Part shown: positions 876 through 17,508 of the stretch, in pieces
Numbering within the stretch: position 1 is the first letter of the stretch
How the letters are laid out: every line of letters starts with the position of its first letter
Assembly: GCA_964465375.1 (NCBI GenBank)
Contig: CAYXIJ010000007.1
Coordinates: forward strand, 2,212 to 66,211
Reading direction: 5' to 3'
Length of the DNA stretch: 64,000 nucleotides
DNA from: an uncultured Gammaproteobacteria bacterium
Lineage (GTDB): Bacteria > Pseudomonadota > Gammaproteobacteria > Steroidobacterales > Rariloculaceae
The notes under the pieces: generated by a model
Databases searched by the model: none
What the model was told of the DNA's origin: nothing
The model's input: only the letters and a program-made list of their open reading frames with translations
Program-made: the position numbers and the translations under genes

Positions 876-1973
876 TTATCTGTGCACAGCTATGAGCTTT
901 GCTTGATTGTCCTCATGGGCCTCATTCCACAAACCCACCTCCCTAAAATATCTAATTGCTCCTGGGTGGTAAGGATGGGGCGTGTTAGCAGGTGCAAGGC
1001 TGTCGGCCGGAATAGCCGCTAAGATAGGATAGTCATTCTGGAGACTCTCCCAATTGCCATGAATGGTCTTCACGATAATGTAGGCATCGTTCTCTGGGAG
1101 ATGAACACCAGTATTGATAAAGCTGTTGAAGTTAGCAATCCGAGTTGGCTTGTCGAGTGCGACGGTCACTGGACCGGGAATTGCCGTAGCTACCCAGGAG
1201 CCCGGCATGAGCTCCGAAAGCTTTTGCTCATCCTGGCCCATTTCAAGAAAGCGGATACCGCCCGGTATTGCAGCGTGGGCCTGTCTGGCGAGAGCAAGAT
1301 CAATGGCTGCTGACACCGCGTCTACCCTACCCTCAGTAAGCAGACGGAGACCTTCAGGCAGACCGGAGACGGTAATGGGTACAACGCTCTCTTCTGTCAA
1401 TCCGCCCGTCGCGAGAATGGCCCTGTGTAGGCTCGCCAACGATGTGTTCGCCCGCATGGTAATGACGACTCGCTTGCCCAGCAGTTCCTCGATTCGGTGT
1501 ACGCCTGAATCGGCCCTCACCACGTACATGAGCCCAACCGTCCAAAGGGACATCAGCGCTCGCAAATTTGACATGGGGCTTACATAAGGCCCGGCCCCCC
1601 GATACGAAAGGTAAGAATCCATGGAAGAATTTATGCCTAGCGTAATCTCTCCGCGGTGCAGCATGGGAACATATACTGAAGATCCGCCGAACGGGCGTAC
1701 TGTGGAGGCAACACCAAGTCTTTCCTGAAGCAGTTTGGCAATCCCCCCACCCAGCAAGTTGTAGTTAGTTCCAGGGGGATTACTGCCAATGGTAACCCGG
1801 CTAAGTTGATCGTCGACTTCGCCATGACAGCCCGAAATGCCCGCAGCCAGAAATAGAAAAGTGAATACTGCGACGGCACGGTTCAGGTGATTCACCACCC
1901 ATGGCGACTGAATAAGCAGACCAGCCCAACTGCCTGCCACCCTTGTCCGTCGATGGTGAATCCGGCAAATCAC
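876..1973 (-). CDS. TAXI-family TRAP transporter solute-binding protein
   Basis: 365-aa ORF whose true start is probably internal. Hydrophobic leader AVAVFTFLFLAAGISGC. The body (TIGSNPPGTNYNLLGGGIAKLLQE, GEITLGINS, PYHPGAIRYFRE) is typical of TAXI-type receptors. A fused permease gene follows immediately. Confidence 0.8.
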   Translation of the reverse strand: MICRIHHRRTRVAGSWAGLLIQSPWVVNHLNRAVAVFTFLFLAAGISGCHGEVDDQLSRVTIGSNPPGTNYNLLGGGIAKLLQERLGVASTVRPFGGSSVYVPMLHRGEITLGINSSMDSYLSYRGAGPYVSPMSNLRALMSLWTVGLMYVVRADSGVHRIEELLGKRVVITMRANTSLASLHRAILATGGLTEESVVPITVSGLPEGLRLLTEGRVDAVSAAIDLALARQAHAAIPGGIRFLEMGQDEQKLSELMPGSWVATAIPGPVTVALDKPTRIANFNSFINTGVHLPENDAYIIVKTIHGNWESLQNDYPILAAIPADSLAPANTPHPYHPGAIRYFREVGLWNEAHEDNQAKLIAVHR

Positions 1974-7608: not shown

Positions 7609-9498
7609 TCAGGCGGTGCGTGTTCTACCAATAACCCACTGTGGAAGCAAGATGGCACCACCTAATGCCAATCCAGCAAACGGAATAAACAAGCCAGGAG
7701 CAATCGCAAGACACGCTGCCGCAAAAATAGTCAGACGCTGGGTGCGATTAAGTGCAAAAAAAGCGTATCCCCGAATACCCATAGCAAAGAATGCTGCACC
7801 AAAAACGGCTGTGATAATTGCAAAAACCATATCAATTAACTCACCCTGCAAAAGAAGACCTGGATTAAATACAAAAGCAAATGGGATCACGAAAGCAGCG
7901 ATACCAAGACGAACCGCCTCTCCCCCTGTTTCCCAAACCTTGCTTCCAGCAATGCTGGATGTGACAAAAACTGCAATACAGGTGGGTGGGGTGAAAAATG
8001 AAGCCAATCCCCAATAGATAACAAAAAGGTGTGCGGCTATATCTGAAACACCCATCCGAATCAATGCTGGCGCCATCAGGGTTGCAAGGGTTATATAGGC
8101 TGGTGTGGCATCAAGTCCCATGCCAACAAATAGGCTAACCACACCTACGAAAAGCATGGCTAAAACCAAATGGCCTCCAGCTAGATCAATAATAAAACGT
8201 GAAAACTTAAGACCCACTCCACTCAATTCTATGGCCCCAATCATCATCCCTACCCCGCCGGTAATCACTGCAATCACCACCCAACGGGTCACTCCTTCCT
8301 CCAGTGCCTGCAAGAACAAACGTGGCAATAACCAATTAGAGCGATCTTTGGACAAAAAACTGGCGCCCAACACAAACAGGCAAGCATAAACACCAGCTAT
8401 TCCCGGTGGCAGTGCAGCGACAATGAGAAAATAAAACAACCCAAGCATGGGAACTAGGTAGTACCACCCCCGAATAAATACGGCTTTGAAGCTTGGCAAG
8501 TCACTCGCTGACAAAGGAGCAACGCCATCCTTTTTTGCCTGCAGATGAACAGAAAAAAAGACAATAAAAAAATAAAGTACAGCTGGTATGGCAGCTGCAA
8601 ATACAATCTCTACGTAAGGTACGTTGATCCACTCGGCCATTAGAAATGCAATCGCGCCCATTACGGGAGGAAGAATCATTCCGCCACTAGACGCTACTGC
8701 TTCTACAGCTGCTGCAAAAGCCCCTGTGTAACCAATACGCTTCATGAGGGGTATCGTGAAAACACCGGTAGTGGCTGAGTTGCCCGATGGCGAACCCGAT
8801 ATAGACCCGAACATAGCACTTGCCAGTACCGCGGCTTTAGCGGGCCCGCCCCGAGACCAGCCTGTGAGTGCCAATGCCATGTCCATGAACCAGTGACTCG
8901 CACCACACCTATGCATCAGGGCACCAAAAATTAGATAAACGATGACGATGTTAGCCGCCACATCCAAGGGACGACCAAAAATACCAGCATCACCTACGTA
9001 CACGCTGAACAACAACTGCTCTATCGGAAAACCGATGCCCCGCAAAACGCCGGGCAGGAACTGCTGAAACATCGTGACACAAATAAAAAACAATATGATG
9101 GCGGGTAAAACCCAGCCTGTTACGCGCCGAATCGCAACTAAAAGTGAAATAACAAGCAGCGAAGAAGCAATGATTCCTGGCCTATCAAGAAAACCAAATA
9201 ACGTATAACCAAGAATGCGGTCATGGAAAAAAATTACAAAGCCCCCGCCTGCTAGTGCTAAAAGCAGAAAACAAAAATCTAACGAATGCCTAAATCGACT
9301 TGAGATGGCTTCTTGACGATGACGATCTGGAGGCATGAATAGAAAAAGGACGAATAGTGCGCTACAAAGACTTACAGCCTTATGTACTTGATCCGGGACG
9401 AAAACCCCAAACCATGTCGGCAATTGGGAAACCACACAAAGATGATAGACAGCAATAATTCCCGCGGCCCAACGCAAAAGATATACTCCCATTAGCAC
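7609..9498 (-). CDS. TRAP transporter fused 4TM/12TM permease
   Basis: 629 aa and highly hydrophobic throughout. GWSRGGPAKAAVLASAMFGSISGS and VMGAIAFLMAEW blocks are typical of DctM-like fused permeases. Confidence 0.85.
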   Translation of the reverse strand: MLMGVYLLRWAAGIIAVYHLCVVSQLPTWFGVFVPDQVHKAVSLCSALFVLFLFMPPDRHRQEAISSRFRHSLDFCFLLLALAGGGFVIFFHDRILGYTLFGFLDRPGIIASSLLVISLLVAIRRVTGWVLPAIILFFICVTMFQQFLPGVLRGIGFPIEQLLFSVYVGDAGIFGRPLDVAANIVIVYLIFGALMHRCGASHWFMDMALALTGWSRGGPAKAAVLASAMFGSISGSPSGNSATTGVFTIPLMKRIGYTGAFAAAVEAVASSGGMILPPVMGAIAFLMAEWINVPYVEIVFAAAIPAVLYFFIVFFSVHLQAKKDGVAPLSASDLPSFKAVFIRGWYYLVPMLGLFYFLIVAALPPGIAGVYACLFVLGASFLSKDRSNWLLPRLFLQALEEGVTRWVVIAVITGGVGMMIGAIELSGVGLKFSRFIIDLAGGHLVLAMLFVGVVSLFVGMGLDATPAYITLATLMAPALIRMGVSDIAAHLFVIYWGLASFFTPPTCIAVFVTSSIAGSKVWETGGEAVRLGIAAFVIPFAFVFNPGLLLQGELIDMVFAIITAVFGAAFFAMGIRGYAFFALNRTQRLTIFAAACLAIAPGLFIPFAGLALGGAILLPQWVIGRTRTA

Positions 9499-9668: not shown

Positions 9669-11054
9669 GTGAATATGACTGACATTGCAGAAACCCTTAT
9701 ACATGAACTTGGCCAACAAGCAGTGCTAACTGGTCCAGAGATTAGCGAAAAATATTTTGTCGACTACACGGGTGATAAACCATGCATGCCACTAGCGGTA
9801 ATACGGCCTGCTTCTACAGAGGAAGTCTCCAGAATTCTCAAGCTATGCTCTCAGATGGACCAAAAAGTGGTCGTCCAAGGTGGGCTCAGTGGGCTTGCGG
9901 GTGGCGCAACCCCGCAACATAACGAGATCGCTATTTCACTTGAAAGAATGTCGGGTATTGAAACGATTGATCCTACCTCAATGACCCTGACAGCCCTAGC
10001 AGGTACACCACTTCAGGCTATTCAGGAAGCGGCTGAGGATGCTGGACTCCTTTTTCCGCTAGACCTGGGTGCCCGTGGCTCATGCAACGTCGGTGGCAAC
10101 ATTGCAACTAACGCCGGTGGCAATCAAGTAATCCGTTTTGGCATGATGCGTAATCTGGTCTTGGGCTTAGAGGCGGTGCTGGCAGACGGGACTGTTCTGA
10201 CCTCGATGAATACCATGCTAAAAAATAACGCTGGCTATGACCTCAAGCAGCTCTTTATTGGAACTGAGGGCACGCTGGGGGTCATTACCCGAGCCGTTTT
10301 GCGGCTTTACCCAAAGCTAACCAGCAGATCAACAGCCCTTTGTGCGCTAAATGATTTTTCTAGTGCTATCAAGCTACTCAATCAAGCACGAATCGGTTTG
10401 GGCAGCTCACTCAGCACATTCGAAGCCATGTGGGCATCTTATTATGATTATGTTCTGGATCACATTAAAGCGCTGCGCTCACCCTTCGATGAGCGATACC
10501 CACTCTACGTGCTCGTAGAATCCGAAGGTACCGATACGGAAAGAGATCAGCAACTTTTCGAAGCTACGTTGAACGAGGCACTAGATACTGGAATCATAAA
10601 AGACGCTGTTGTTGCTCAATCCCAGAAAGACACACGCCTTTTCTGGAATATCCGCGATGGTATCGGTGAGGTCACCCAATATTTAATACCTTACGCCACA
10701 TTTGATATTAGTCTACCCATTGGAGAAATGTCAGGGTTTTTAGATCGGGTACATGAATCACTCACAGCTAAATTTACTAACGCCACAAAGCTGGTTTTCG
10801 GTCACATAGGCGACAACAATTTGCATTTGGTTGTTACTACCGGGACTAGTGAAGATGTAAAGAAGATCTTTGATCTGATCTATCGACTAACGGGCGCGCA
10901 CAAAGGGTCAGTATCTGCCGAACACGGCATAGGCACTCAAAAACTCGACTATCTACACTATTCACGAAGTGCTGAAGAAATCGAAGTGATGCAAAGACTG
11001 AAAAACACCCTTGACCCGGGAGGAATTCTAAATCCGGGCCGAGTGTTACCTTAA
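9669..11054 (+). CDS. FAD-linked oxidase (GlcD / D-lactate or D-2-hydroxyacid dehydrogenase family)
   Basis: 461 aa. FAD_binding_4-type VVVQGGLSGLAGGATP and GGNIATNAGG. C-terminal SAEHGIGTQK...LKNTLDPGGILNPG. Start is GTG 9669 or ATG 9675. Confidence 0.85.
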   Translation: MNMTDIAETLIHELGQQAVLTGPEISEKYFVDYTGDKPCMPLAVIRPASTEEVSRILKLCSQMDQKVVVQGGLSGLAGGATPQHNEIAISLERMSGIETIDPTSMTLTALAGTPLQAIQEAAEDAGLLFPLDLGARGSCNVGGNIATNAGGNQVIRFGMMRNLVLGLEAVLADGTVLTSMNTMLKNNAGYDLKQLFIGTEGTLGVITRAVLRLYPKLTSRSTALCALNDFSSAIKLLNQARIGLGSSLSTFEAMWASYYDYVLDHIKALRSPFDERYPLYVLVESEGTDTERDQQLFEATLNEALDTGIIKDAVVAQSQKDTRLFWNIRDGIGEVTQYLIPYATFDISLPIGEMSGFLDRVHESLTAKFTNATKLVFGHIGDNNLHLVVTTGTSEDVKKIFDLIYRLTGAHKGSVSAEHGIGTQKLDYLHYSRSAEEIEVMQRLKNTLDPGGILNPGRVLP

Positions 11055-11176
11055 TTTCGCCAAAGAGCTCATTATCGACACTACGAAAACTAACCATCCT
11101 TACCTCAAGGGAAATCTCCTCTGAGGCGGAGAAAAAGACATGTCACTATCGCCTTTATCGGCGACAACAGATTGTT

Positions 11177-11551
11177 CTAGTTTCTATTCGGATAAAGATT
11201 GTAGAGCTGATCCCCAACCTTGAGGCGCTCGGTTTTCATCTCGAAATTCGTTGCCTCAGCATGACGGTGCCCATACGCCGTAACAGTCTCGCCCACTTCT
11301 ATCTCATCTTGACCAAAACCGGCACGCCGGCTCCGGAAAGGAGTTGAAAGTACCACATTCCACTGCTGACCACCGGCTTCAATCGTAAGCCGATCGTGGG
11401 GAGCCCCAAAATGCTTCTCAACAACAACGCCCTCTAGAGAAAAATCGCTTCCCGTATACCACGACCACCCATGATGAGCAGATGCCAATCCCGAAAGAAC
11501 TAGGAAAAACCCTGGAACTATCAAAAACATAGCTTTTTTAATCAAGTACAT
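11177..11551 (-). CDS. small exported protein, DUF6152-like (family assignment tentative); paralog of 60859-61263
   Basis: Start moved to ATG 11551, which has AAGGGGA upstream. Signal peptide MYLIKKAMFLIVPGFFLVLSGLASA followed by HHGWSWY. About 100-aa mature protein with the same layout as the ORF at 60859-61263. Confidence 0.55.
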   Translation of the reverse strand: MYLIKKAMFLIVPGFFLVLSGLASAHHGWSWYTGSDFSLEGVVVEKHFGAPHDRLTIEAGGQQWNVVLSTPFRSRRAGFGQDEIEVGETVTAYGHRHAEATNFEMKTERLKVGDQLYNLYPNRN

Positions 11552-11693
11552 ACTATCCCCTTCGACTATGCACATGCAGCCTGTAGTCTAGCACCATCAG
11601 TTGGCAAAAATCTGTCATAAGTTTGGTAACACATTGAGTAGGCTGTGGTAGCTATTAGTAATACTTGTAGATTAGAGCCAGATAGCTAGTGTG

Positions 11694-13319
11694 TTAGTCA
11701 TCCCAATCCAGATCTCCGCTTGGTAGTGCCGTCAATAGCCTACCTTCGCGCAACAGGTTTGATATGTCAGAGATATAGTCGCCAAGCGCTTCATCATGAT
11801 CTAGGTATGGAACTAGCTCACGCACCATTTCATAGATGGACCGAGTGACGGAGCTTAGTGCGGCCGCTCCTTCGTCGCGCTGGTCTACCGCCTGACAGGC
11901 ACATATCAATTCAAAAGCTGGAATGTAGTAGGCATTATCAACAATATCCCGGGCACGCCGGGCAGCCACGAGACCCATCGAAACATGATCTTGAAAATCT
12001 CCGGTAGTAGTTAATGTTTGGATCGAGACCGGATGACACAGTGAGCGCATGTCCGCCATAATGGAAGCTGCGCAGTACTGGCCACCCATCAATCCATGAC
12101 GCAATCCTGGATCCTCTTTGCATAAGAATGGAGGTAACCCGTTGTTGTGGTGAGGATCTAGGTATCGATCTATGCGTCGGTCAGATAAATTGCACATATT
12201 TACAACGGCAATAGAAAGATGATCCATGGCCTGACTTACATATTGGCCATGGAAATGAGCATTATGGAATGCATCACCCTCTTCCACAATGACCAGTGGA
12301 TTGTCATTGGTAGAGTTGATCTCTATTTTGAGTGTCTGATCTGCAGACCAGATAGCATCAAGACTTGGACCCAGAATCTGCGGCGTTGCACGCATTGAAT
12401 AGGCATCCTCGATTTGCTGATCCATCCCCTGGGGTTCTCCACTCCTCATACTGGAGAGCCAACGGTCCACCTCTTCATCCTGAACCACCATCTTGCTGTC
12501 AGCCAAGGTTGACCAAATTGCACCCGCGACTTTGATCTGTCCCGGATGAGGCTTATTTTTGTGAACAGTGGGATGGTAAGGCATGATCTTGCCCTTTAGC
12601 GCCTCAAGACTAATGGCAGAAACCAGACAGAATTGTTTCACCAGTCTTTTGGCCCCATAAAGCAATGGCGCAGCTACCCCTACCATCATGGAGGTGCCAT
12701 TAATCATGGCAAGACCCTCCTTGTAGCTTAGACGTGCGGCTTCAAGCCCAGCGCGCTTAAGCGCTTCCTCGCCTGACATAATCTCACCTTGATATTTAGC
12801 CCGCCATGCGCCTGTAGCAACAAGCGCAATGTAGGCCAGTGGCCCTAAATCACCACTTGCCCCTAAGGATCCCTTCTCCGGCACACAGGGAATGATGCCA
12901 GCGTTGTACATATCCACATATTTTTTGAAATTCTCCAGTGAAATCGCCGATATACCGCGGCCCATAGAGTTAATCCGGCATAACATAGCCGCACGTACGT
13001 AGATGTCTTCTAGGTCCGGTCCAACGTTCGAAGAAACACCGCGCAGTATGTTGTTCTGAAGCTTTTCAGCAAGATTTTCTGGGATTAGCCAGTTGACGAA
13101 GCCACCTACTGCAGTAGTCACACCGTAGATAGTGCGACCTGATTTCACAAAGCCGTCCAACAAATCCCTCGATGCTTTAATCCGGACTTCCTGTTCCGGA
13201 AAAATTTTTACCCTCGCATGACTTTTAGCCGCAAGAACCAACTCATCAACGGTCAGAGTTTCCCCATCCAGTTCAATTGTCGGTATATTTGCACCGGTGT
13301 TCTTTTGAGATTTTTTCAC
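11694..13319 (-). CDS. MIO-dependent aromatic/histidine ammonia-lyase or aminomutase family enzyme
   Basis: 541 aa, GTG start with GGAG upstream. GSLGASGDLGPLA contains the Ala-Ser-Gly triad that forms the MIO prosthetic group. Other family blocks: YGVTTAVGGF, NDNPLV, HFHGQYVS, GDFQDHVSMG. Confidence 0.85.
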   Translation of the reverse strand: MKKSQKNTGANIPTIELDGETLTVDELVLAAKSHARVKIFPEQEVRIKASRDLLDGFVKSGRTIYGVTTAVGGFVNWLIPENLAEKLQNNILRGVSSNVGPDLEDIYVRAAMLCRINSMGRGISAISLENFKKYVDMYNAGIIPCVPEKGSLGASGDLGPLAYIALVATGAWRAKYQGEIMSGEEALKRAGLEAARLSYKEGLAMINGTSMMVGVAAPLLYGAKRLVKQFCLVSAISLEALKGKIMPYHPTVHKNKPHPGQIKVAGAIWSTLADSKMVVQDEEVDRWLSSMRSGEPQGMDQQIEDAYSMRATPQILGPSLDAIWSADQTLKIEINSTNDNPLVIVEEGDAFHNAHFHGQYVSQAMDHLSIAVVNMCNLSDRRIDRYLDPHHNNGLPPFLCKEDPGLRHGLMGGQYCAASIMADMRSLCHPVSIQTLTTTGDFQDHVSMGLVAARRARDIVDNAYYIPAFELICACQAVDQRDEGAAALSSVTRSIYEMVRELVPYLDHDEALGDYISDISNLLREGRLLTALPSGDLDWDD

Positions 13320-13434
13320 TCTATTTCTCCAGTATCAAAAATTGGTAGTTGATTGATCGGGATAACGCAGCGGCATTGCTGTGGGCATTCAACATCTACT
13401 GCTGCGGGAACAAATCCCGGTGGCATCGGCTGTT

Positions 13435-14649
13435 TCATCCTGTCGGGCGATTGTCTACAGCTAGGACCAGAGCCATGGCGGAATCGCCAGCCGCACAGCC
13501 CGTAAAAAGTCCGTTTCCGCCACCACGCATAACCAATTCTTCAATTAGTTCAATGACCGACCGCATCGCGGTGGGCGCCTGAGGGTGTCCCCAAATCAAG
13601 GAGCAACCGAAATTGTTGAAATCCTCCACCCGCACACCGGTATCCCGAGCAAAGATGATGTCATTCACTGCAAAAGGGTTGTGAGTTTTAATCACATCTA
13701 TGTCCTCGAATGACAAATTAGCGTGCCGCAGAGCTGCACGGGCCGCATTGGTTGGTGCCTCCGGCATGTATGCGAGTTCCACCCGAGATTGCCCAGCACT
13801 CAAGATGCGGATCTGCACGGTGGAGTCCGCCGACAGCTCTCGGGTCCTGTCCAGACCCGAAACCACGATAGCCGCATTACCGTCTGCCGGATGAGTTTGC
13901 CCACCAAATGTGACTGTACCGCCCTCGACAACAGGCTTAAGCTGCGCAAGACCATCAGCCGTGGACTTAACCACTCCCTGATCGCCGTCAATTTCCTCTG
14001 CCTTTTTTCGGAATCGCGGGTCCGGAACGGCAAACGGTAAGTCCATATATTGCTTCTGAAATGCTTTGTCCTCCGATAAGGCCTCTTGGTATTGTGCATA
14101 ACGCAGTAATACAACCTCATGTTGCTCGGCTGTTGAAATGGAGTGCTTTGCAGCAACATTCTCAGCCGTCTGCAACATCGAATGCTTACCGAGTGGATCA
14201 CAGTTAAAGCTATCCAAGACAACATCCTCGGAGACACCGGTCCCACCGGTTACCGTCTGGGCCGGATAATAGGTGTGTGGACCGTTAGAGCAACGATCAG
14301 CAGTAGCGGCAAGCACAGTTTGGGCTAGGCCACTACTAATTTCCTGAGCGGCCATAAGTACGGCCCGAACACCTGATGCGCAGACTTGTGACACGGTGGG
14401 TCCTGGCGCCTGCGGTGCACCGAGCAAGCCCATAAACCAAGGTGTGCCGTAGAACGATTGATGTTGGTAAATACTGAGCCCGAGTACACCGGCGTCAAAA
14501 AACTTTGGGTCAATGCTGCGGCTAGCGAGCTCACGGCGAGCGACGTAGGCGGCAAACTTAACGGCATGGAGATGCTGCATCGATCCTTGCCAACGCGCAA
14601 ACGGTGTAGACCAGTAACAACCATATGGAATTTCAACCTTTTCGAACAT
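13435..14649 (-). CDS. thiolase family protein (acetyl-CoA C-acyltransferase-like)
   Basis: 404 aa. Nucleophile block VSQVCASGVRAV, a GHP block (LIWGHPQAPTAMRS) and a C-terminal Cys block (FTGCAAGDSAMALVL). The start overlaps the upstream aminotransferase by 17 nt. Confidence 0.8.
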   Translation of the reverse strand: MFEKVEIPYGCYWSTPFARWQGSMQHLHAVKFAAYVARRELASRSIDPKFFDAGVLGLSIYQHQSFYGTPWFMGLLGAPQAPGPTVSQVCASGVRAVLMAAQEISSGLAQTVLAATADRCSNGPHTYYPAQTVTGGTGVSEDVVLDSFNCDPLGKHSMLQTAENVAAKHSISTAEQHEVVLLRYAQYQEALSEDKAFQKQYMDLPFAVPDPRFRKKAEEIDGDQGVVKSTADGLAQLKPVVEGGTVTFGGQTHPADGNAAIVVSGLDRTRELSADSTVQIRILSAGQSRVELAYMPEAPTNAARAALRHANLSFEDIDVIKTHNPFAVNDIIFARDTGVRVEDFNNFGCSLIWGHPQAPTAMRSVIELIEELVMRGGGNGLFTGCAAGDSAMALVLAVDNRPTG

Positions 14650-16009
14650 TGTCGCCCCCCATCTCCATCACTACATCACGCATTGCCATGTCGGCACGTT
14701 CTACAGCCTCCGCGATATCTTTCTCCGTAATAACAGTTGATAAAGCAATCATGCCCCGTGGCGCGATGAATAACCCATGATTCATGCAGGCAATATGAAA
14801 TTTCTCAATCAACTCTCCATCCTCGCGGACGTTAGAAGACCGGGGAGCCGCTTCGCTGAAGTAGAGATTCAAACAGGACCCATGATGGTTTACCGACAAA
14901 GGCAATCCATGCTTGTTCGAAGCACGGATCAACCCCGCCTGTAGTAATCCCCGCAGCTGGTCCATCTGCTCGATACGCTTTACGGTTAGCTCCCGCAAGG
15001 ATACCTCGCCCGCAGCCATTGTTACTGGGTTCCCGTTAAAAGTGCCGGTGTGAAAAATTTTCATGTCATAAGGATTAAAAATTTGTAGCAGTTCTGCGCG
15101 ACCACCCACCGCACCGACAGGGAACCCTCCCCCAATGATCTTGCCCAGCATGGTCAGGTCTGGCTCAATACCAATGGCTCCCTGGCACCCGCCAACTGCG
15201 AATCGCAGGGTGAGCACTTCGTCGAGAACGAATAGTGCACCAACCTTGTGTGCGGCCGCCCTGACTTCGTGGAGAAAATCCGGTTCACCGCGAATGACCC
15301 CGCTAGCACCCAGTACCGGTTCTAGGAACACAGCCGCAATGTCATTTCCGTGTTCGCCCAGCACGGCCGCAAAGTCTGCTGGGTCATTGTAGGTTGCCAG
15401 GTGAGTAAGTGGCCCTTCCTTGCCAAAGAAACCAATTCCGAACTCGAGTGCCGACCCATGGTAGCCCCACCGTGCCATTAACAGTTTGTTTCTACCGGTA
15501 ATGATCCGGGCAATGGTAAATGCGAGTACGCCAGCTTCGGACCCTGAATTCGTAAAGCGGACCTGCTCAATGGCAGGCACCCGATCGATGATCAGCTCAG
15601 CAAGGCGGTTCTGAGGTTCGTTAGCGGCAGCCCACCCGGTACCGTCGCTGATTTGTCTGCGCGCTGCCTCTACGATGGGAGGATATGCGTGTCCATGGAC
15701 CATTGCCGTGTAATTATTGATCAGATCAAGATATTCATGACCATCGAGATCCCAAAAGCGAGGGCCCGTGCCACGCTTGATCGTGAGGGGGTAGGGTTCC
15801 CAGTAGGATGCCTGCCGCGACGTTCCACTCGGCATCAGATTAGTTGCCTTTTTGTATAAGTCAGCACTTGACCGGGTGCGCTCGAAATACGCTGCGCGAA
15901 TCGCAGACATAAAGCCAGTTCCTCTACCAGTTATAGGCGCATCCCCTTGTGGCGACGCCTGAAGAAGCTCTCCGCTCGCGGACATGGCCACAGCTGATTT
16001 AATGAGCAC
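14633..16009 (-). CDS. class-III (fold type I) aminotransferase, glutamate-1-semialdehyde aminomutase-like subfamily
   Basis: 458 aa. FWDLDGHEYLDLINNYTAMVHGH, FTNSGSEAG, FVLDEV and the PLP-lysine block MLGKIIGGGFPVGAVGG. Confidence 0.85.
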   Translation of the reverse strand: MLIKSAVAMSASGELLQASPQGDAPITGRGTGFMSAIRAAYFERTRSSADLYKKATNLMPSGTSRQASYWEPYPLTIKRGTGPRFWDLDGHEYLDLINNYTAMVHGHAYPPIVEAARRQISDGTGWAAANEPQNRLAELIIDRVPAIEQVRFTNSGSEAGVLAFTIARIITGRNKLLMARWGYHGSALEFGIGFFGKEGPLTHLATYNDPADFAAVLGEHGNDIAAVFLEPVLGASGVIRGEPDFLHEVRAAAHKVGALFVLDEVLTLRFAVGGCQGAIGIEPDLTMLGKIIGGGFPVGAVGGRAELLQIFNPYDMKIFHTGTFNGNPVTMAAGEVSLRELTVKRIEQMDQLRGLLQAGLIRASNKHGLPLSVNHHGSCLNLYFSEAAPRSSNVREDGELIEKFHIACMNHGLFIAPRGMIALSTVITEKDIAEAVERADMAMRDVVMEMGGDNVRKG

Positions 16010-16043
16010 TTACAAACAATATATCACTACAAAGATAAATATG

Positions 16044-16081
16044 TTGATATTCTTATTTTAATAGTCCATTATTTTGATATT
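16044..16081. promoter_or_regulatory. two copies of TTGATATT spaced 30 bp apart in the AT-rich divergent promoter; candidate Lrp/AsnC operator
   Basis: TTGATATT occurs at 16044-16051 and again at 16074-16081. Their contexts are similar (ATGTTGATATTCTTATTTT and ATTTTGATATTTTATTGCT). They lie between the aminotransferase start (16009) and the regulator start (16116). Confidence 0.3.
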
Positions 16082-16115
16082 TTATTGCTTATTTATAAAT
16101 CTTTTTGAAATTATA

Positions 16116-16574
16116 ATGCTAAATAATCTGGATAACACCGATCGTAAAATTCTGGTAAAGCTTCAAAAAGAAGGAAGGCTGCCCATCGTAGACCTAGCGC
16201 AGCAAGTCGGTCTGTCACCTTCGCCTTGCCTCAGACGGGTAAGACGACTGGAACAACAGGGTGTGATCAAAGGCTACGGCGCATACATTGATCACCATAA
16301 AGTAGACATGGATATCGTTGGTTATATCGAAGTCAACCTAGATCAAGCAGACGCAGAAGGTTTCCATGAGGCAGTACTGAAAGAACCTGCAATCGTTGAA
16401 TGCTACGCGCTATCAGGTAGCTTTGACTGTCTTCTTAAGGTGGCGGTTTCGGATCTTGAGGCGTTTGGGAAACTAACAATGCAGGAAATTCTAAGATACC
16501 CCGGAGTGAAGAGTATTACTTCAAGTTTGATCCTGCGGTCTTTAAAAGAGCAAGTTGGATTCCCGATCCCTTAG
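16116..16574 (+). CDS. Lrp/AsnC family transcriptional regulator
   Basis: Start moved to ATG 16116 (MLNNLDNTDRKILVKLQKEGRLPIVDLAQQVGLSPSPCLRRVRRLEQQGVIKGY). An HTH domain is followed by a RAM/AsnC-type ligand domain. It is divergent from the aminotransferase operon. Confidence 0.85.
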   Translation: MLNNLDNTDRKILVKLQKEGRLPIVDLAQQVGLSPSPCLRRVRRLEQQGVIKGYGAYIDHHKVDMDIVGYIEVNLDQADAEGFHEAVLKEPAIVECYALSGSFDCLLKVAVSDLEAFGKLTMQEILRYPGVKSITSSLILRSLKEQVGFPIP

Positions 16575-16656
16575 GCTCGCCAGACTTATCGTGAATTCTA
16601 TTTAAGAATGCCGCTCGATCTTTCTGGGATGGTAGTTACTAAAAAAGAAAGTATCC

Positions 16657-17508
16657 CTAGAAACAACCCGCCTGATAATCGGCAAATGCCTGACGAATTT
16701 CCTCCTCAGTATTCATCACGAAAGGCCCGTACCTCGCAACCGGCTCATTGCAAGGCCTCCCAGCTACCAAAATTATTCGGGCTCCAGTAGAGCCACCACT
16801 GAGATCAATATGTGAGCCGGAACCGAGGACAGCTAACTGGTTTTGCTTCGCCCTGGGAGATTTCAATCCCAGCTGGATGGAGCCTTCGTAAACGTATATG
16901 AAAGCGTTGTATTTTATTGGTAATGGAATCAGTACTGATTTGGCAGCCTCAAGCGTCAGGTCAAGAAAAATAGGATCGGTACTGATACCCTGGACGGGAC
17001 CTGTAGCTCCACTAAATTCACCAGCTACGACACGTGCACGCACTCCTGGTTCTGGAACGACTTCAGGTATTTCTTGGGCTGGAATATCCTGATAGCGAGG
17101 CTCAGTTAATTTCTTGCTAGCCGGAAGGTTCACCCAGAGCTGGAACCCCCACATTAATCCGTTCTCCTGTTCGGGCAACTCTGAATGTACAATACCGCGC
17201 CCTGCTGTCATCCACTGCACACTACCCGGACCCAAGAGACCGCTGTTGCCCTTATTATCTGCATGCCTCATGCGACCGGCCAACATGTAAGTTACCGTTT
17301 CAAAACCACGGTGCGGGTGGTCAGGAAAACCCGCAATATAATCATTAGGGTCGTCAGATCTAATTTCATCCAGAAGAAGAAACGGATCTAGATAGGATAG
17401 CTCACTGGTTCCCAACAACCGAGTTAAATGAACCCCAGCACCGTCACTGGTCGCGTGACCATTAACAACCTTTACTATTTGCCGACCGTTTACATTATCT
17501 GATGTCAT
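16657..17508 (-). CDS. pirin family protein
   Basis: 283 aa. Bicupin with HPHRGFETVTYML and GSVQWMTAGRGIVHSE. Confidence 0.85.
   Translation of the reverse strand: MTSDNVNGRQIVKVVNGHATSDGAGVHLTRLLGTSELSYLDPFLLLDEIRSDDPNDYIAGFPDHPHRGFETVTYMLAGRMRHADNKGNSGLLGPGSVQWMTAGRGIVHSELPEQENGLMWGFQLWVNLPASKKLTEPRYQDIPAQEIPEVVPEPGVRARVVAGEFSGATGPVQGISTDPIFLDLTLEAAKSVLIPLPIKYNAFIYVYEGSIQLGLKSPRAKQNQLAVLGSGSHIDLSGGSTGARIILVAGRPCNEPVARYGPFVMNTEEEIRQAFADYQAGCF

Follow-up and report, generated by a model that had tools for sequence, protein, structure and literature searches.

A gammaproteobacterial operon encoding an AdmH-like MIO enzyme, a beta-phenylalanine-type aminotransferase and a divergent thiolase: a candidate route from tyrosine or phenylalanine to benzoyl-CoA

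The question raised by this locus is what is made or degraded by an operon that combines an enzyme of the 4-methylideneimidazole-5-one (MIO) family, a class III aminotransferase and a thiolase. The operon lies in a 64,000-nt stretch of contig CAYXIJ010000007.1 (hereafter the window, meaning the whole stretch analyzed), from assembly GCA_964465375.1 of an uncultured gammaproteobacterium of the Rariloculaceae. In the list of open reading frames (ORFs), the three genes are co-directional on the minus strand, opposite a divergent Lrp/AsnC gene; the list bears out the gene coordinates given in an earlier note on this DNA, as well as the 17-nt overlap between the aminotransferase stop and the thiolase ATG and the position of the regulator gene (pos. 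16116–16574). The same note had proposed the succession of MIO mutase, aminotransferase and cleavage by the thiolase, and the family matches and gene co-conservation described below support this idea. With moderate confidence, we propose that the block encodes a catabolic core in which tyrosine (Tyr) or phenylalanine (Phe) would be converted, through a beta-amino acid and a 3-oxoacyl-coenzyme A (CoA), to (4-hydroxy)benzoyl-CoA and acetyl-CoA.

The MIO gene (pos. 11694–13319, minus strand; 541 aa) is predicted to encode an AdmH-like aromatic amino acid 2,3-aminomutase, possibly with lyase activity too, of a subtype marked by H408 and Y415. The Pfam match to PF00221 (Lyase_aromatic; 539 bits) spans positions 1–466 of the 466-position profile, and the MIO triad was found as A154-S155-G156 within GSLGASGDLGPLA; both features place the protein in the MIO family and agree with the MIO-dependent lyase or aminomutase with an ASG triad described in the note. 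The alignment also located the catalytic loop Tyr at Y65 (in IYGV) and the carboxylate-binding Arg in YSMRATPQ. Comparison of family models revealed TIGR04475 (phenylalanine aminomutase, D-beta-Phe forming) as the top family by a wide margin (736.6 bits), ahead of hutH (TIGR01225; 466.5 bits), Tyr_2_3_mutase (416.6 bits) and PAL (319.7 bits), and both MIO paralog types in relatives scored 736–744 bits on the TIGR04475 model. The best solved relative was AdmH (3UNV; 588 bits), followed by the Streptomyces tyrosine aminomutase SgTAM (322 bits). A histidase (HutH) was rejected, since the hutH score lies under the cut-off of 539.15 bits, TIGR04475 and AdmH are the best matches, the host genome contains this MIO gene only, and hutU (TIGR01228) was not detected in that genome, which is 96% complete. 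No hut genes were present among the annotated related loci; thus the note was right to exclude a hut operon, and the tight grouping with HutH and the nearby hutU or hutI genes that it had named as grounds for abandoning its proposal were not seen.

Analysis of the substrate pocket (V95, H408, M411 and Y415) revealed that V95 aligns with Val108 of AdmH and His93 of SgTAM and is kept in all MIO relatives, among which two pocket types occur: H408/Y415/C416, as in the window, and L408/F415. The L408/F415 type resembles AdmH (L421, F428) and belongs to another clade of relatives than that of the window, the H/Y label falls on one side of the MIO tree, and the clusters with two MIO genes at loci L004, L012 and L016 contain one gene of each type apiece (the L/F-type gene of L016 is at 13350–14969). 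These data suggest an old division of labor between the two pocket types. Y415 aligns with Tyr415 of SgTAM, which hydrogen-bonds the phenol of the substrate. Because of the two pocket types, this alignment and the paired paralogs in the two-MIO clusters, Tyr, which would lead to 4-hydroxybenzoyl-CoA, is rated about as likely as Phe to be the substrate of the window enzyme.

The second gene (pos. 14633–16009, minus strand; 458 aa) encodes a class III aminotransferase of the beta-phenylalanine aminotransferase type (Aminotran_3, 180 bits). Its best matches in the PDB were 4AO9 from Variovorax (287 bits), 2YKU from Mesorhizobium (282 bits) and 6IZ9 (282 bits), above every glutamate-1-semialdehyde (GSA) aminomutase, in line with the note, which had put the protein in the GSA-like class III group together with the beta-Phe enzymes. 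R65 aligns with R41 of the Variovorax enzyme VpAT, and this residue, the Schiff-base Lys in LGKIIGGG and the switch Arg in APRG are all conserved; these features support the predicted membership in the group of VpAT and the Mesorhizobium enzyme MesAT, of the aromatic beta-amino acid type. A HemL identity was rejected, since the score on the hemL model (TIGR00713) was 292.6 bits, below the cut-off of 527.3, and a separate HemL gene (519 bits) is present on contig C31 of the host genome. Arg65 was also rejected as a guide to a free-acid or CoA-ester substrate because this Arg has a second role: the corresponding residue of MesAT also holds the distal carboxylate of glutamate or 2-oxoglutarate.

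The third gene (pos. 13435–14649, minus strand; 404 aa) encodes a divergent thiolase, for which we propose an activity on aroylacetyl-CoA (3-oxo-3-arylpropanoyl-CoA). Thiolase_N (PF00108) and Thiolase_C (PF02803) both scored above their cut-offs, and the catalytic set is complete, with Cys90 (VSQVCASG), Asn324 (HNPF), His355 (GHP) and Cys385 (GCAAGD), so that the intact Cys, His and Cys blocks reported in the note are joined by the Asn. The motifs are nonetheless non-canonical (HNPF for NEAF, and GCAAGD/CAAGD for CxGGG), the score on TIGR01930 was 181.8 bits, below the cut-off of 240.55, and the best PDB match reached 116 bits only. Judged by these matches, the protein is an outlying, divergent paralog with intact catalytic residues. 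The host genome contains two canonical thiolases elsewhere (438 and 373 bits); since these and the separate HemL exist, the genes of the block are not the housekeeping copies. The thiolase had more than 100 database clusters at >60% identity. The labels on its matches, like those on the HemL-like aminotransferase of the two-MIO clusters, were generic only, and a search of the ESM Atlas returned generic thiolase clusters only.

To what extent the three genes belong together can be judged from their relatives. Relatives of the MIO enzyme were collected at 25 loci in GTDB species genomes, and metagenome contigs were examined too; 24 of the 25 loci are in metagenome-assembled genomes (MAGs), and the exception, in a Crenarchaeota single-cell genome, is the most distant (31% identity). 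The hosts include Gammaproteobacteria (Woeseiaceae among them), Alphaproteobacteria, SAR324, Myxococcota-type bins, Acidobacteriota and others. The MIO, aminotransferase, thiolase and Lrp families recur jointly, in shuffled order, across several phyla: aminotransferase–thiolase–MIO in the window and L001, MIO–thiolase–aminotransferase–ligase in L006, L007 and L037–L039, MIO–aminotransferase–thiolase–ligase in L033/L034, MIO–aminotransferase–MIO–thiolase–ligase in L004, and MIO–aminotransferase in L002, L015 and L019, usually with a divergent Lrp/AsnC gene. The neighborhood survey that the note had called for therefore revealed co-conservation of the MIO, aminotransferase and thiolase genes in other genomes, not the scattering that it had listed as an argument against itself.

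The ligase in these cassettes is an AMP-binding acyl-CoA synthetase of ~610–627 aa that matches NF009232 with 783–800 bits (cut-off 777), for example at L033:11212–13095; a PDB search with it returned malonyl-CoA ligase at 82 bits. Its recurrent place in the cassette indicates that this synthetase is the predicted CoA ligase absent from the window block. Among 20 MIO-bearing genomes, the thiolase family was found in 15 and the NF009232-type synthetase in 12, and three of the four cassette members (MIO enzyme, beta-type aminotransferase, thiolase and synthetase) are present in the window. The MIO clade was found in one of 399 other genomes of the class sample and not in the three same-order genomes sampled. 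Since the clade is rare in the class sample and phyla are mixed in its tree, this distribution points to horizontal spread; the higher G+C content of the block (0.50–0.535 in window positions 12001–16000, versus 0.46–0.475 in the flanks), together with the lack of the clade in same-order genomes, is consistent with horizontal acquisition.

The neighbors and companions of the cassette tie its predicted end product to benzoyl-CoA catabolism. In the Woeseiaceae contig L003, the MIO and thiolase genes are followed by bcrC, bcrB, bcrA and bcrD, all four of which exceed the cut-offs of their NCBIfam equivalog models, and a second Woeseiaceae contig (L023) contains the same gene families in identical order. 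In L033, the cassette is followed by genes for a molybdoenzyme resembling 4-hydroxybenzoyl-CoA reductase and then by boxB (843 bits) and boxC (881 bits). Scores above cut-off were obtained for BoxB in 12, for BcrB in 12 and for either in 16 of the 20 MIO-bearing genomes, versus 18 of 399 (BoxB) and 9 of 400 (BcrB) genomes of the class sample; because the 20 genomes are interrelated and drawn from several classes, this contrast should be read as indicative, not as the outcome of statistical testing. Eight genomes of the class sample carry the thiolase family, seven of them with BoxB or BcrB, and by this distribution the family itself is tied to benzoyl-CoA metabolism.

The host genome contains a box operon that is interrupted by a contig break, one part closing contig C17 and the other opening C47 (C17:46600–52418 and C47:1–4918; L040 and L041). 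It comprises boxR, boxC (891 bits), boxB (cut by the contig break), a boxD-like dehydrogenase gene and genes for a FadB-like protein, a 4HBT-type thioesterase and a 537-aa acyl-CoA ligase (C47:3305–4918), and it shares with L033 the reductase-like genes for gamma, alpha and beta subunits. After boxC and boxB come a PnbB-like ORF of 155 aa and then the three-subunit molybdoenzyme, which is nearest to 4-hydroxybenzoyl-CoA reductase (alpha 752, beta 255 and gamma 183 bits, all below cut-offs); the Cys spacing of its beta subunit, C-x15-C-x7-C-x8-C, resembles that of the extra [4Fe-4S] loop of 4-hydroxybenzoyl-CoA reductase. No BoxA above the cut-off (best 135 bits) and no PobA were found in the host genome. 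Reductase-like genes also adjoin boxB in L033 and in genomes G401, G405, G409 and G419; as a marker of Tyr as opposed to Phe carriers they were rejected, since they occur in 15 of the 20 genomes and with both MIO types. A reductase-like enzyme in the box operon would make the Tyr branch workable.

From the observed family assignments, catalytic residues, gene co-conservation and bcr/box linkage, we infer the chemical steps, direction of flux, substrate, order of ligation and transamination, and regulation of a route that would run as follows. The AdmH-type MIO 2,3-aminomutase would act on L-Tyr and/or L-Phe by moving the C2 amino group to C3, and the beta-Phe-type aminotransferase would hand it to a 2-oxo acid, leaving a 3-oxo-3-arylpropanoyl unit. 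The CoA thioester would be formed by the ~620-aa operon acyl-CoA synthetase in most relatives and, in the host genome, by a non-orthologous activating enzyme in its place, for which the ligase beside the box operon is the most evident candidate, though a guess. The thiolase would then use CoA to cleave the unit into (4-hydroxy)benzoyl-CoA and acetyl-CoA, and the aromatic CoA ester would enter the box operon in the host genome, with ring attack by Box or, elsewhere, Bcr. The divergent Lrp/AsnC protein would turn the operon on upon an amino acid signal.

The stereochemistry of these steps would be coherent, since AdmH forms the (S) enantiomer of beta-Phe (PMC3903478), the one for which bacterial transamination of beta-Phe is selective (PMC6150868). 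As to the order of steps, activation before transamination would be favored because free benzoylacetate (3-oxo-3-phenylpropanoate) decarboxylates spontaneously to acetophenone, as in beta-Phe-degrading Paraburkholderia (PMC6150868). A precedent for this order is Kat (CLOAM0809), the 3-aminobutyryl-CoA aminotransferase of a variant lysine fermentation, which accepts the thioester of beta-Phe and rejects free beta-Phe (PMC3149608). The window aminotransferase, however, falls in the free-acid VpAT/MesAT group, which would fit transamination of the free acid.

A number of observations weigh against this route. No CoA ligase or CoA transferase lies within the three-gene block, as the note had stated, and a search of the host genome for the cassette ligase gave a best match of 30% identity over partial length. 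It recovered only distant AMP-binding paralogs, on contigs C47, C26, C4, C10 and C5, together with four CoA-transferases of family III, and no ortholog is among them. An NF009232-type ligase was not found in the closest relative (G401) either; thus the gap that had concerned the note is filled in the cassettes of most relatives, but not by an ortholog in the host. The window-type aminotransferase is present in 9 of the 20 MIO-bearing genomes, the others having a HemL-like aminotransferase (~34% identity) adjoining the MIO gene, and L003 and L023 have the MIO–thiolase pair and no aminotransferase nearby. The MIO enzyme missed the equivalog cut-off of TIGR04475 (736.6 versus 800 bits), and the hydrophobic aryl pocket of AdmH, formed by V108, L421, M424 and F428, is not matched, with H408 and Y415 differing. 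All relatives of this MIO clade come from MAGs apart from one single-cell genome, and the clade is known from sequence alone. Mutase chemistry is not readable from the sequence, because the AdmH relative EncP acts as a lyase, an activity that AdmH also displays when warmed (PMC3903478). In addition, thiolase paralogs of ~60% identity lie near bcr/box genes in genomes without a MIO gene, and in G120 a member of the family has as its neighbor a FadB-like gene with 49% identity to its counterpart in the host box cluster; the thiolase family could serve a later beta-oxidation step.

If so, the thiolase would be merely co-located with the other two genes and would act on 3-oxoadipyl-CoA (box pathway), on 3-oxopimelyl-CoA (anaerobic pathway) or in general beta-oxidation. 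Nitrogen salvage would then be the task of the MIO enzyme and the aminotransferase by themselves, and the 3-oxo acid that they form would lose CO2 to give an aryl methyl ketone. The paralogs without a MIO gene (57–64% identity, within ~10 kb of bcr/box genes in G027, G051 and G387), the FadB-like neighbor in G120, the host box cluster, which has no thiolase of its own, and the conversion of free 3-oxo-3-phenylpropanoate to acetophenone in Paraburkholderia (PMC6150868) are all compatible with this explanation. We nevertheless consider it unlikely. The thiolase orthologs adjoining MIO genes form a group apart (76–94% identity), and G419 carries one copy of each kind (77% and 64%), suggesting that their functions differ. 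The position of the thiolase gene in several cassettes, either flanked by the MIO and aminotransferase genes or overlapping the aminotransferase gene, also speaks against mere co-location, as does the dedicated acyl-CoA synthetase of the cassette, which would be of little use if the product decarboxylates.

The aminotransferase provides the main argument on a second alternative, in which the MIO enzyme is an EncP-like ammonia-lyase whose product, cinnamate or p-coumarate, would pass as a CoA ester through beta-oxidation, with hydratase and dehydrogenase encoded elsewhere and the thiolase making the last cut. Such a route has no need of an aminotransferase, which would be an accessory, for example one that clears a beta-amino acid by-product, yet this gene is the most constant neighbor of the MIO gene (window, L001, L002, L004, L006, L007, L012, L014–L017, L019, L020, L033 and L037). 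No hydratase or dehydrogenase gene is present in the block or in most cassettes, and the hosts are cold-to-temperate marine organisms, conditions in which AdmH works as a mutase. These points make a lyase quite unlikely despite the activities of EncP, which has been compared with AdmH, and of warmed AdmH (PMC3903478), despite the ligase, two enoyl-CoA hydratases, acyl-CoA dehydrogenase and short-chain dehydrogenase encoded divergently upstream of the cassette in L033, and despite the MIO–thiolase pairs of L003 and L023, where the aminotransferase is not adjacent.

A different substrate, such as m-Tyr, 3,4-dihydroxyphenylalanine (DOPA), a halogenated or heteroaromatic analogue or His, would lead to another aroyl-CoA. 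The pocket, unlike that of AdmH (H408 and Y415 for L421 and F428) and that of SgTAM (V95 for His93), leaves room for this idea, as does a MIO clade represented by sequences only; however, His is opposed by the hutH score well under the cut-off and by the lack of hutU, and the link to benzoyl-CoA genes fits plain phenyl or 4-hydroxyphenyl rings best, so that we regard another substrate as improbable. Although all characterized bacterial MIO aminomutases, to our knowledge, serve secondary metabolism, a biosynthetic block that would provide a natural-product pathway with a beta-amino acid or with benzoyl-CoA as the starter unit (as in AdmH/andrimid or enc/enterocin) is very improbable, given no nonribosomal peptide synthetase or polyketide synthase within the window or the related loci examined, a streamlined genome of 2.2 Mb, catabolic neighbors (bcr, box, TRAP and TonB transport) and a regulator of the amino-acid-responsive Lrp/AsnC type.

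How far the proposed route from Tyr or Phe to (4-hydroxy)benzoyl-CoA departs from known systems was assessed by comparison. Textbook bacterial catabolism of Phe and Tyr proceeds through homogentisate, which needs oxygen, through phenylacetyl-CoA, or by the long anaerobic route through phenylpyruvate, phenylacetate and phenylglyoxylate. The EncP/EncH/EncI/EncJ route of Streptomyces maritimus and plant benzoate beta-oxidation likewise start from Phe and end at benzoyl-CoA, and the Enc route, like the proposed one, combines a MIO enzyme of the AdmH clade with a CoA ligase and ends with a thiolase; however, it is biosynthetic and passes through cinnamoyl-CoA with a hydratase and a dehydrogenase, whereas here an aminotransferase would replace both steps in a catabolic context. 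A similar pair of steps is described for the anaerobic ethylbenzene/acetophenone pathway of Aromatoleum aromaticum, in which a CoA ligase activates benzoylacetate and a thiolase then splits the thioester into benzoyl-CoA and acetyl-CoA. There, however, benzoylacetate comes from carboxylation of acetophenone by acetophenone carboxylase, not from an amino acid.

Among single enzymes, AdmH (PaPAM of Pantoea agglomerans, EC 5.4.3.11) is similar over ~500 residues and shares the catalytic Tyr (Y65 here, Y78 in AdmH), the carboxylate-binding Arg, the Val (V95 here, V108 in AdmH) and the MIO-forming triad, although the triad is TSG in AdmH and ASG here, the pocket has L421 and F428 in place of the polar H408 and Y415, and AdmH belongs to andrimid biosynthesis (PMC3903478), in contrast to the catabolic-looking operon described here. 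VpAT (Variovorax paradoxus) and MesAT (Mesorhizobium sp. LUK), in which the Lys and both Arg are conserved, come from beta-Phe-utilizing isolates, where the keto acid ends as acetophenone (PMC6150868) and no partnership with a mutase, a ligase or a thiolase has been described; here, the aminotransferase gene is translationally coupled to the thiolase gene. The lysine fermentation with Kat shares the logic of an aminomutase, a beta-amino acyl-CoA, a HemL-like aminotransferase and a thiolase, and the Kat gene is co-located with a thiolase gene, but Kat is 24% identical to MesAT (PMC3149608), in whose group the window enzyme lies, and lysine fermentation relies on aminomutases of the radical SAM or B12 kind instead of MIO enzymes.

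Singly, the enzymes are thus new members of known families, and the implied pathway is undescribed; no paper clearly describing an aminomutase route to benzoyl-CoA was found in the literature, in which not every match was examined in full. If the proposal is true, benzoyl-CoA would be reached in four steps without redox chemistry or oxygen, nitrogen would be retained as glutamate and acetyl-CoA gained, and a MIO aminomutase would have its first catabolic role, in primary catabolism and not in secondary metabolism. It would also explain a large set of metagenomic genes labeled histidine ammonia-lyase, glutamate-1-semialdehyde aminomutase and acetyl-CoA acetyltransferase, and the enzymes are candidate biocatalysts for chiral beta-amino acids. 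A wider proposal, which we put forward tentatively, is that marine bacteria of several phyla, mostly uncultured, would share an undescribed O2-independent four-enzyme route for Tyr and Phe, with two paralog types of ancient divergence, H408/Y415 for Tyr and L/F for Phe, and with the reductase-like enzyme of the box operon feeding the Tyr branch into aerobic benzoyl-CoA epoxidation.

The regulator gene was assigned to pos. 16116–16574 (plus strand). Its longest ORF starts from TTG 16074, but the ATG at 16116 is preferred because translation from there gives the typical N-terminus MLNNLDNTDRKIL. HTH_AsnC-type (PF13404), HTH_24 (PF13412) and AsnC_trans_reg (PF01037) all scored above cut-offs, indicating an Lrp/AsnC-family protein with a predicted N-terminal helix-turn-helix and C-terminal ligand domain; it is not an equivalog of Escherichia coli Lrp (NF008370, 130 bits; cut-off 233). 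The divergent arrangement is conserved, with an Lrp/AsnC homolog upstream of the MIO gene and in the opposite orientation at no fewer than 13 related loci, and would suggest that this protein controls the operon. The AT-rich divergent intergenic region (pos. 16010–16115) is the presumed site of promoter and operator and contains promoter-like hexamers on both strands (16047–16018 on the minus and 16044–16072 on the plus strand), although the counts from the promoter and terminator scan were not above those of shuffled sequence in this region. An Rfam scan of pos. 10900–16800 gave no RNA family matches. Within the operon, the aminotransferase may start at GTG 16009 or ATG 15985, with homologs alignable only from about residue 24–34, and a 116-nt spacer separates the thiolase gene from the MIO gene, which starts at GTG 13319 after a GGAG ribosome-binding site. 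Short contigs (95–99% identity) from RNA-type libraries of three marine studies were the only matches of this kind; they cover stretches of the DUF6152, MIO, thiolase and aminotransferase genes, and those for the thiolase all come from runs flagged as probably DNA. Such contigs show presence in RNA libraries and are weak evidence of expression, falling short of proving transcription or a joint transcript of the operon.

The DUF6152 gene encodes a small protein and lies directly downstream of the MIO gene (pos. 11177–11575, minus strand). This arrangement is shared with the nearest relative, L001, alone, so that a role of the gene in the pathway is improbable. Further away, a TAXI-type TRAP solute receptor (NMT1_3; pos. 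876–1973, minus strand) and a fused TRAP permease (pos. 7609–9498, minus strand) are encoded 5.6 kb apart. A transport link of these genes to the pathway is possible because a homolog of the permease adjoins the Lrp–MIO pair in L021.

Several observations were made in related loci. A paralogous thiolase clade (~60% identity) is always paired with a generic acyl-CoA ligase of ~491–504 aa (L047, L048, L049, L043 and L035/L036); the pair lies ~6.5 kb from bcrCBAD in L047 and L048 and near hydantoinase A/B-like genes in L035 and L049, with B12 mutase and molybdoenzyme genes also in L035. The hydantoinase-like genes were rejected as evidence, since they scored best as caprolactamase-like and below the acetophenone carboxylase cut-offs. 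Two AdmH-like MIO paralogs, with H/Y and L/F pockets, flank an aminotransferase gene in L004, L012, L014, L016 and L020. This aminotransferase is of the window type in L004 (68% identity) and HemL-like in the other four (~34% to that of the window), where it could be a Kat-like acyl-CoA beta-transaminase. In L014 and L020, the cluster is followed by a gene resembling HbpS and by a DctPQM TRAP transporter; indolepyruvate-ferredoxin-oxidoreductase-like genes also follow in L014 and in L018, which has a single MIO gene. In a Lysobacterales MAG (L005:11594–15696), a MIO gene and the cassette ligase are followed by a penicillin-amidase-family gene in two ORFs (302 and 430 aa), which may reflect a frameshift or a natural alpha/beta split. 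The MIO genes of L018 (a Neomarinimicrobiota bin) and L020 (a Gammaproteobacteria bin) are near-identical, with a tree distance of ~0.004, owing to either a very recent transfer or a binning error.

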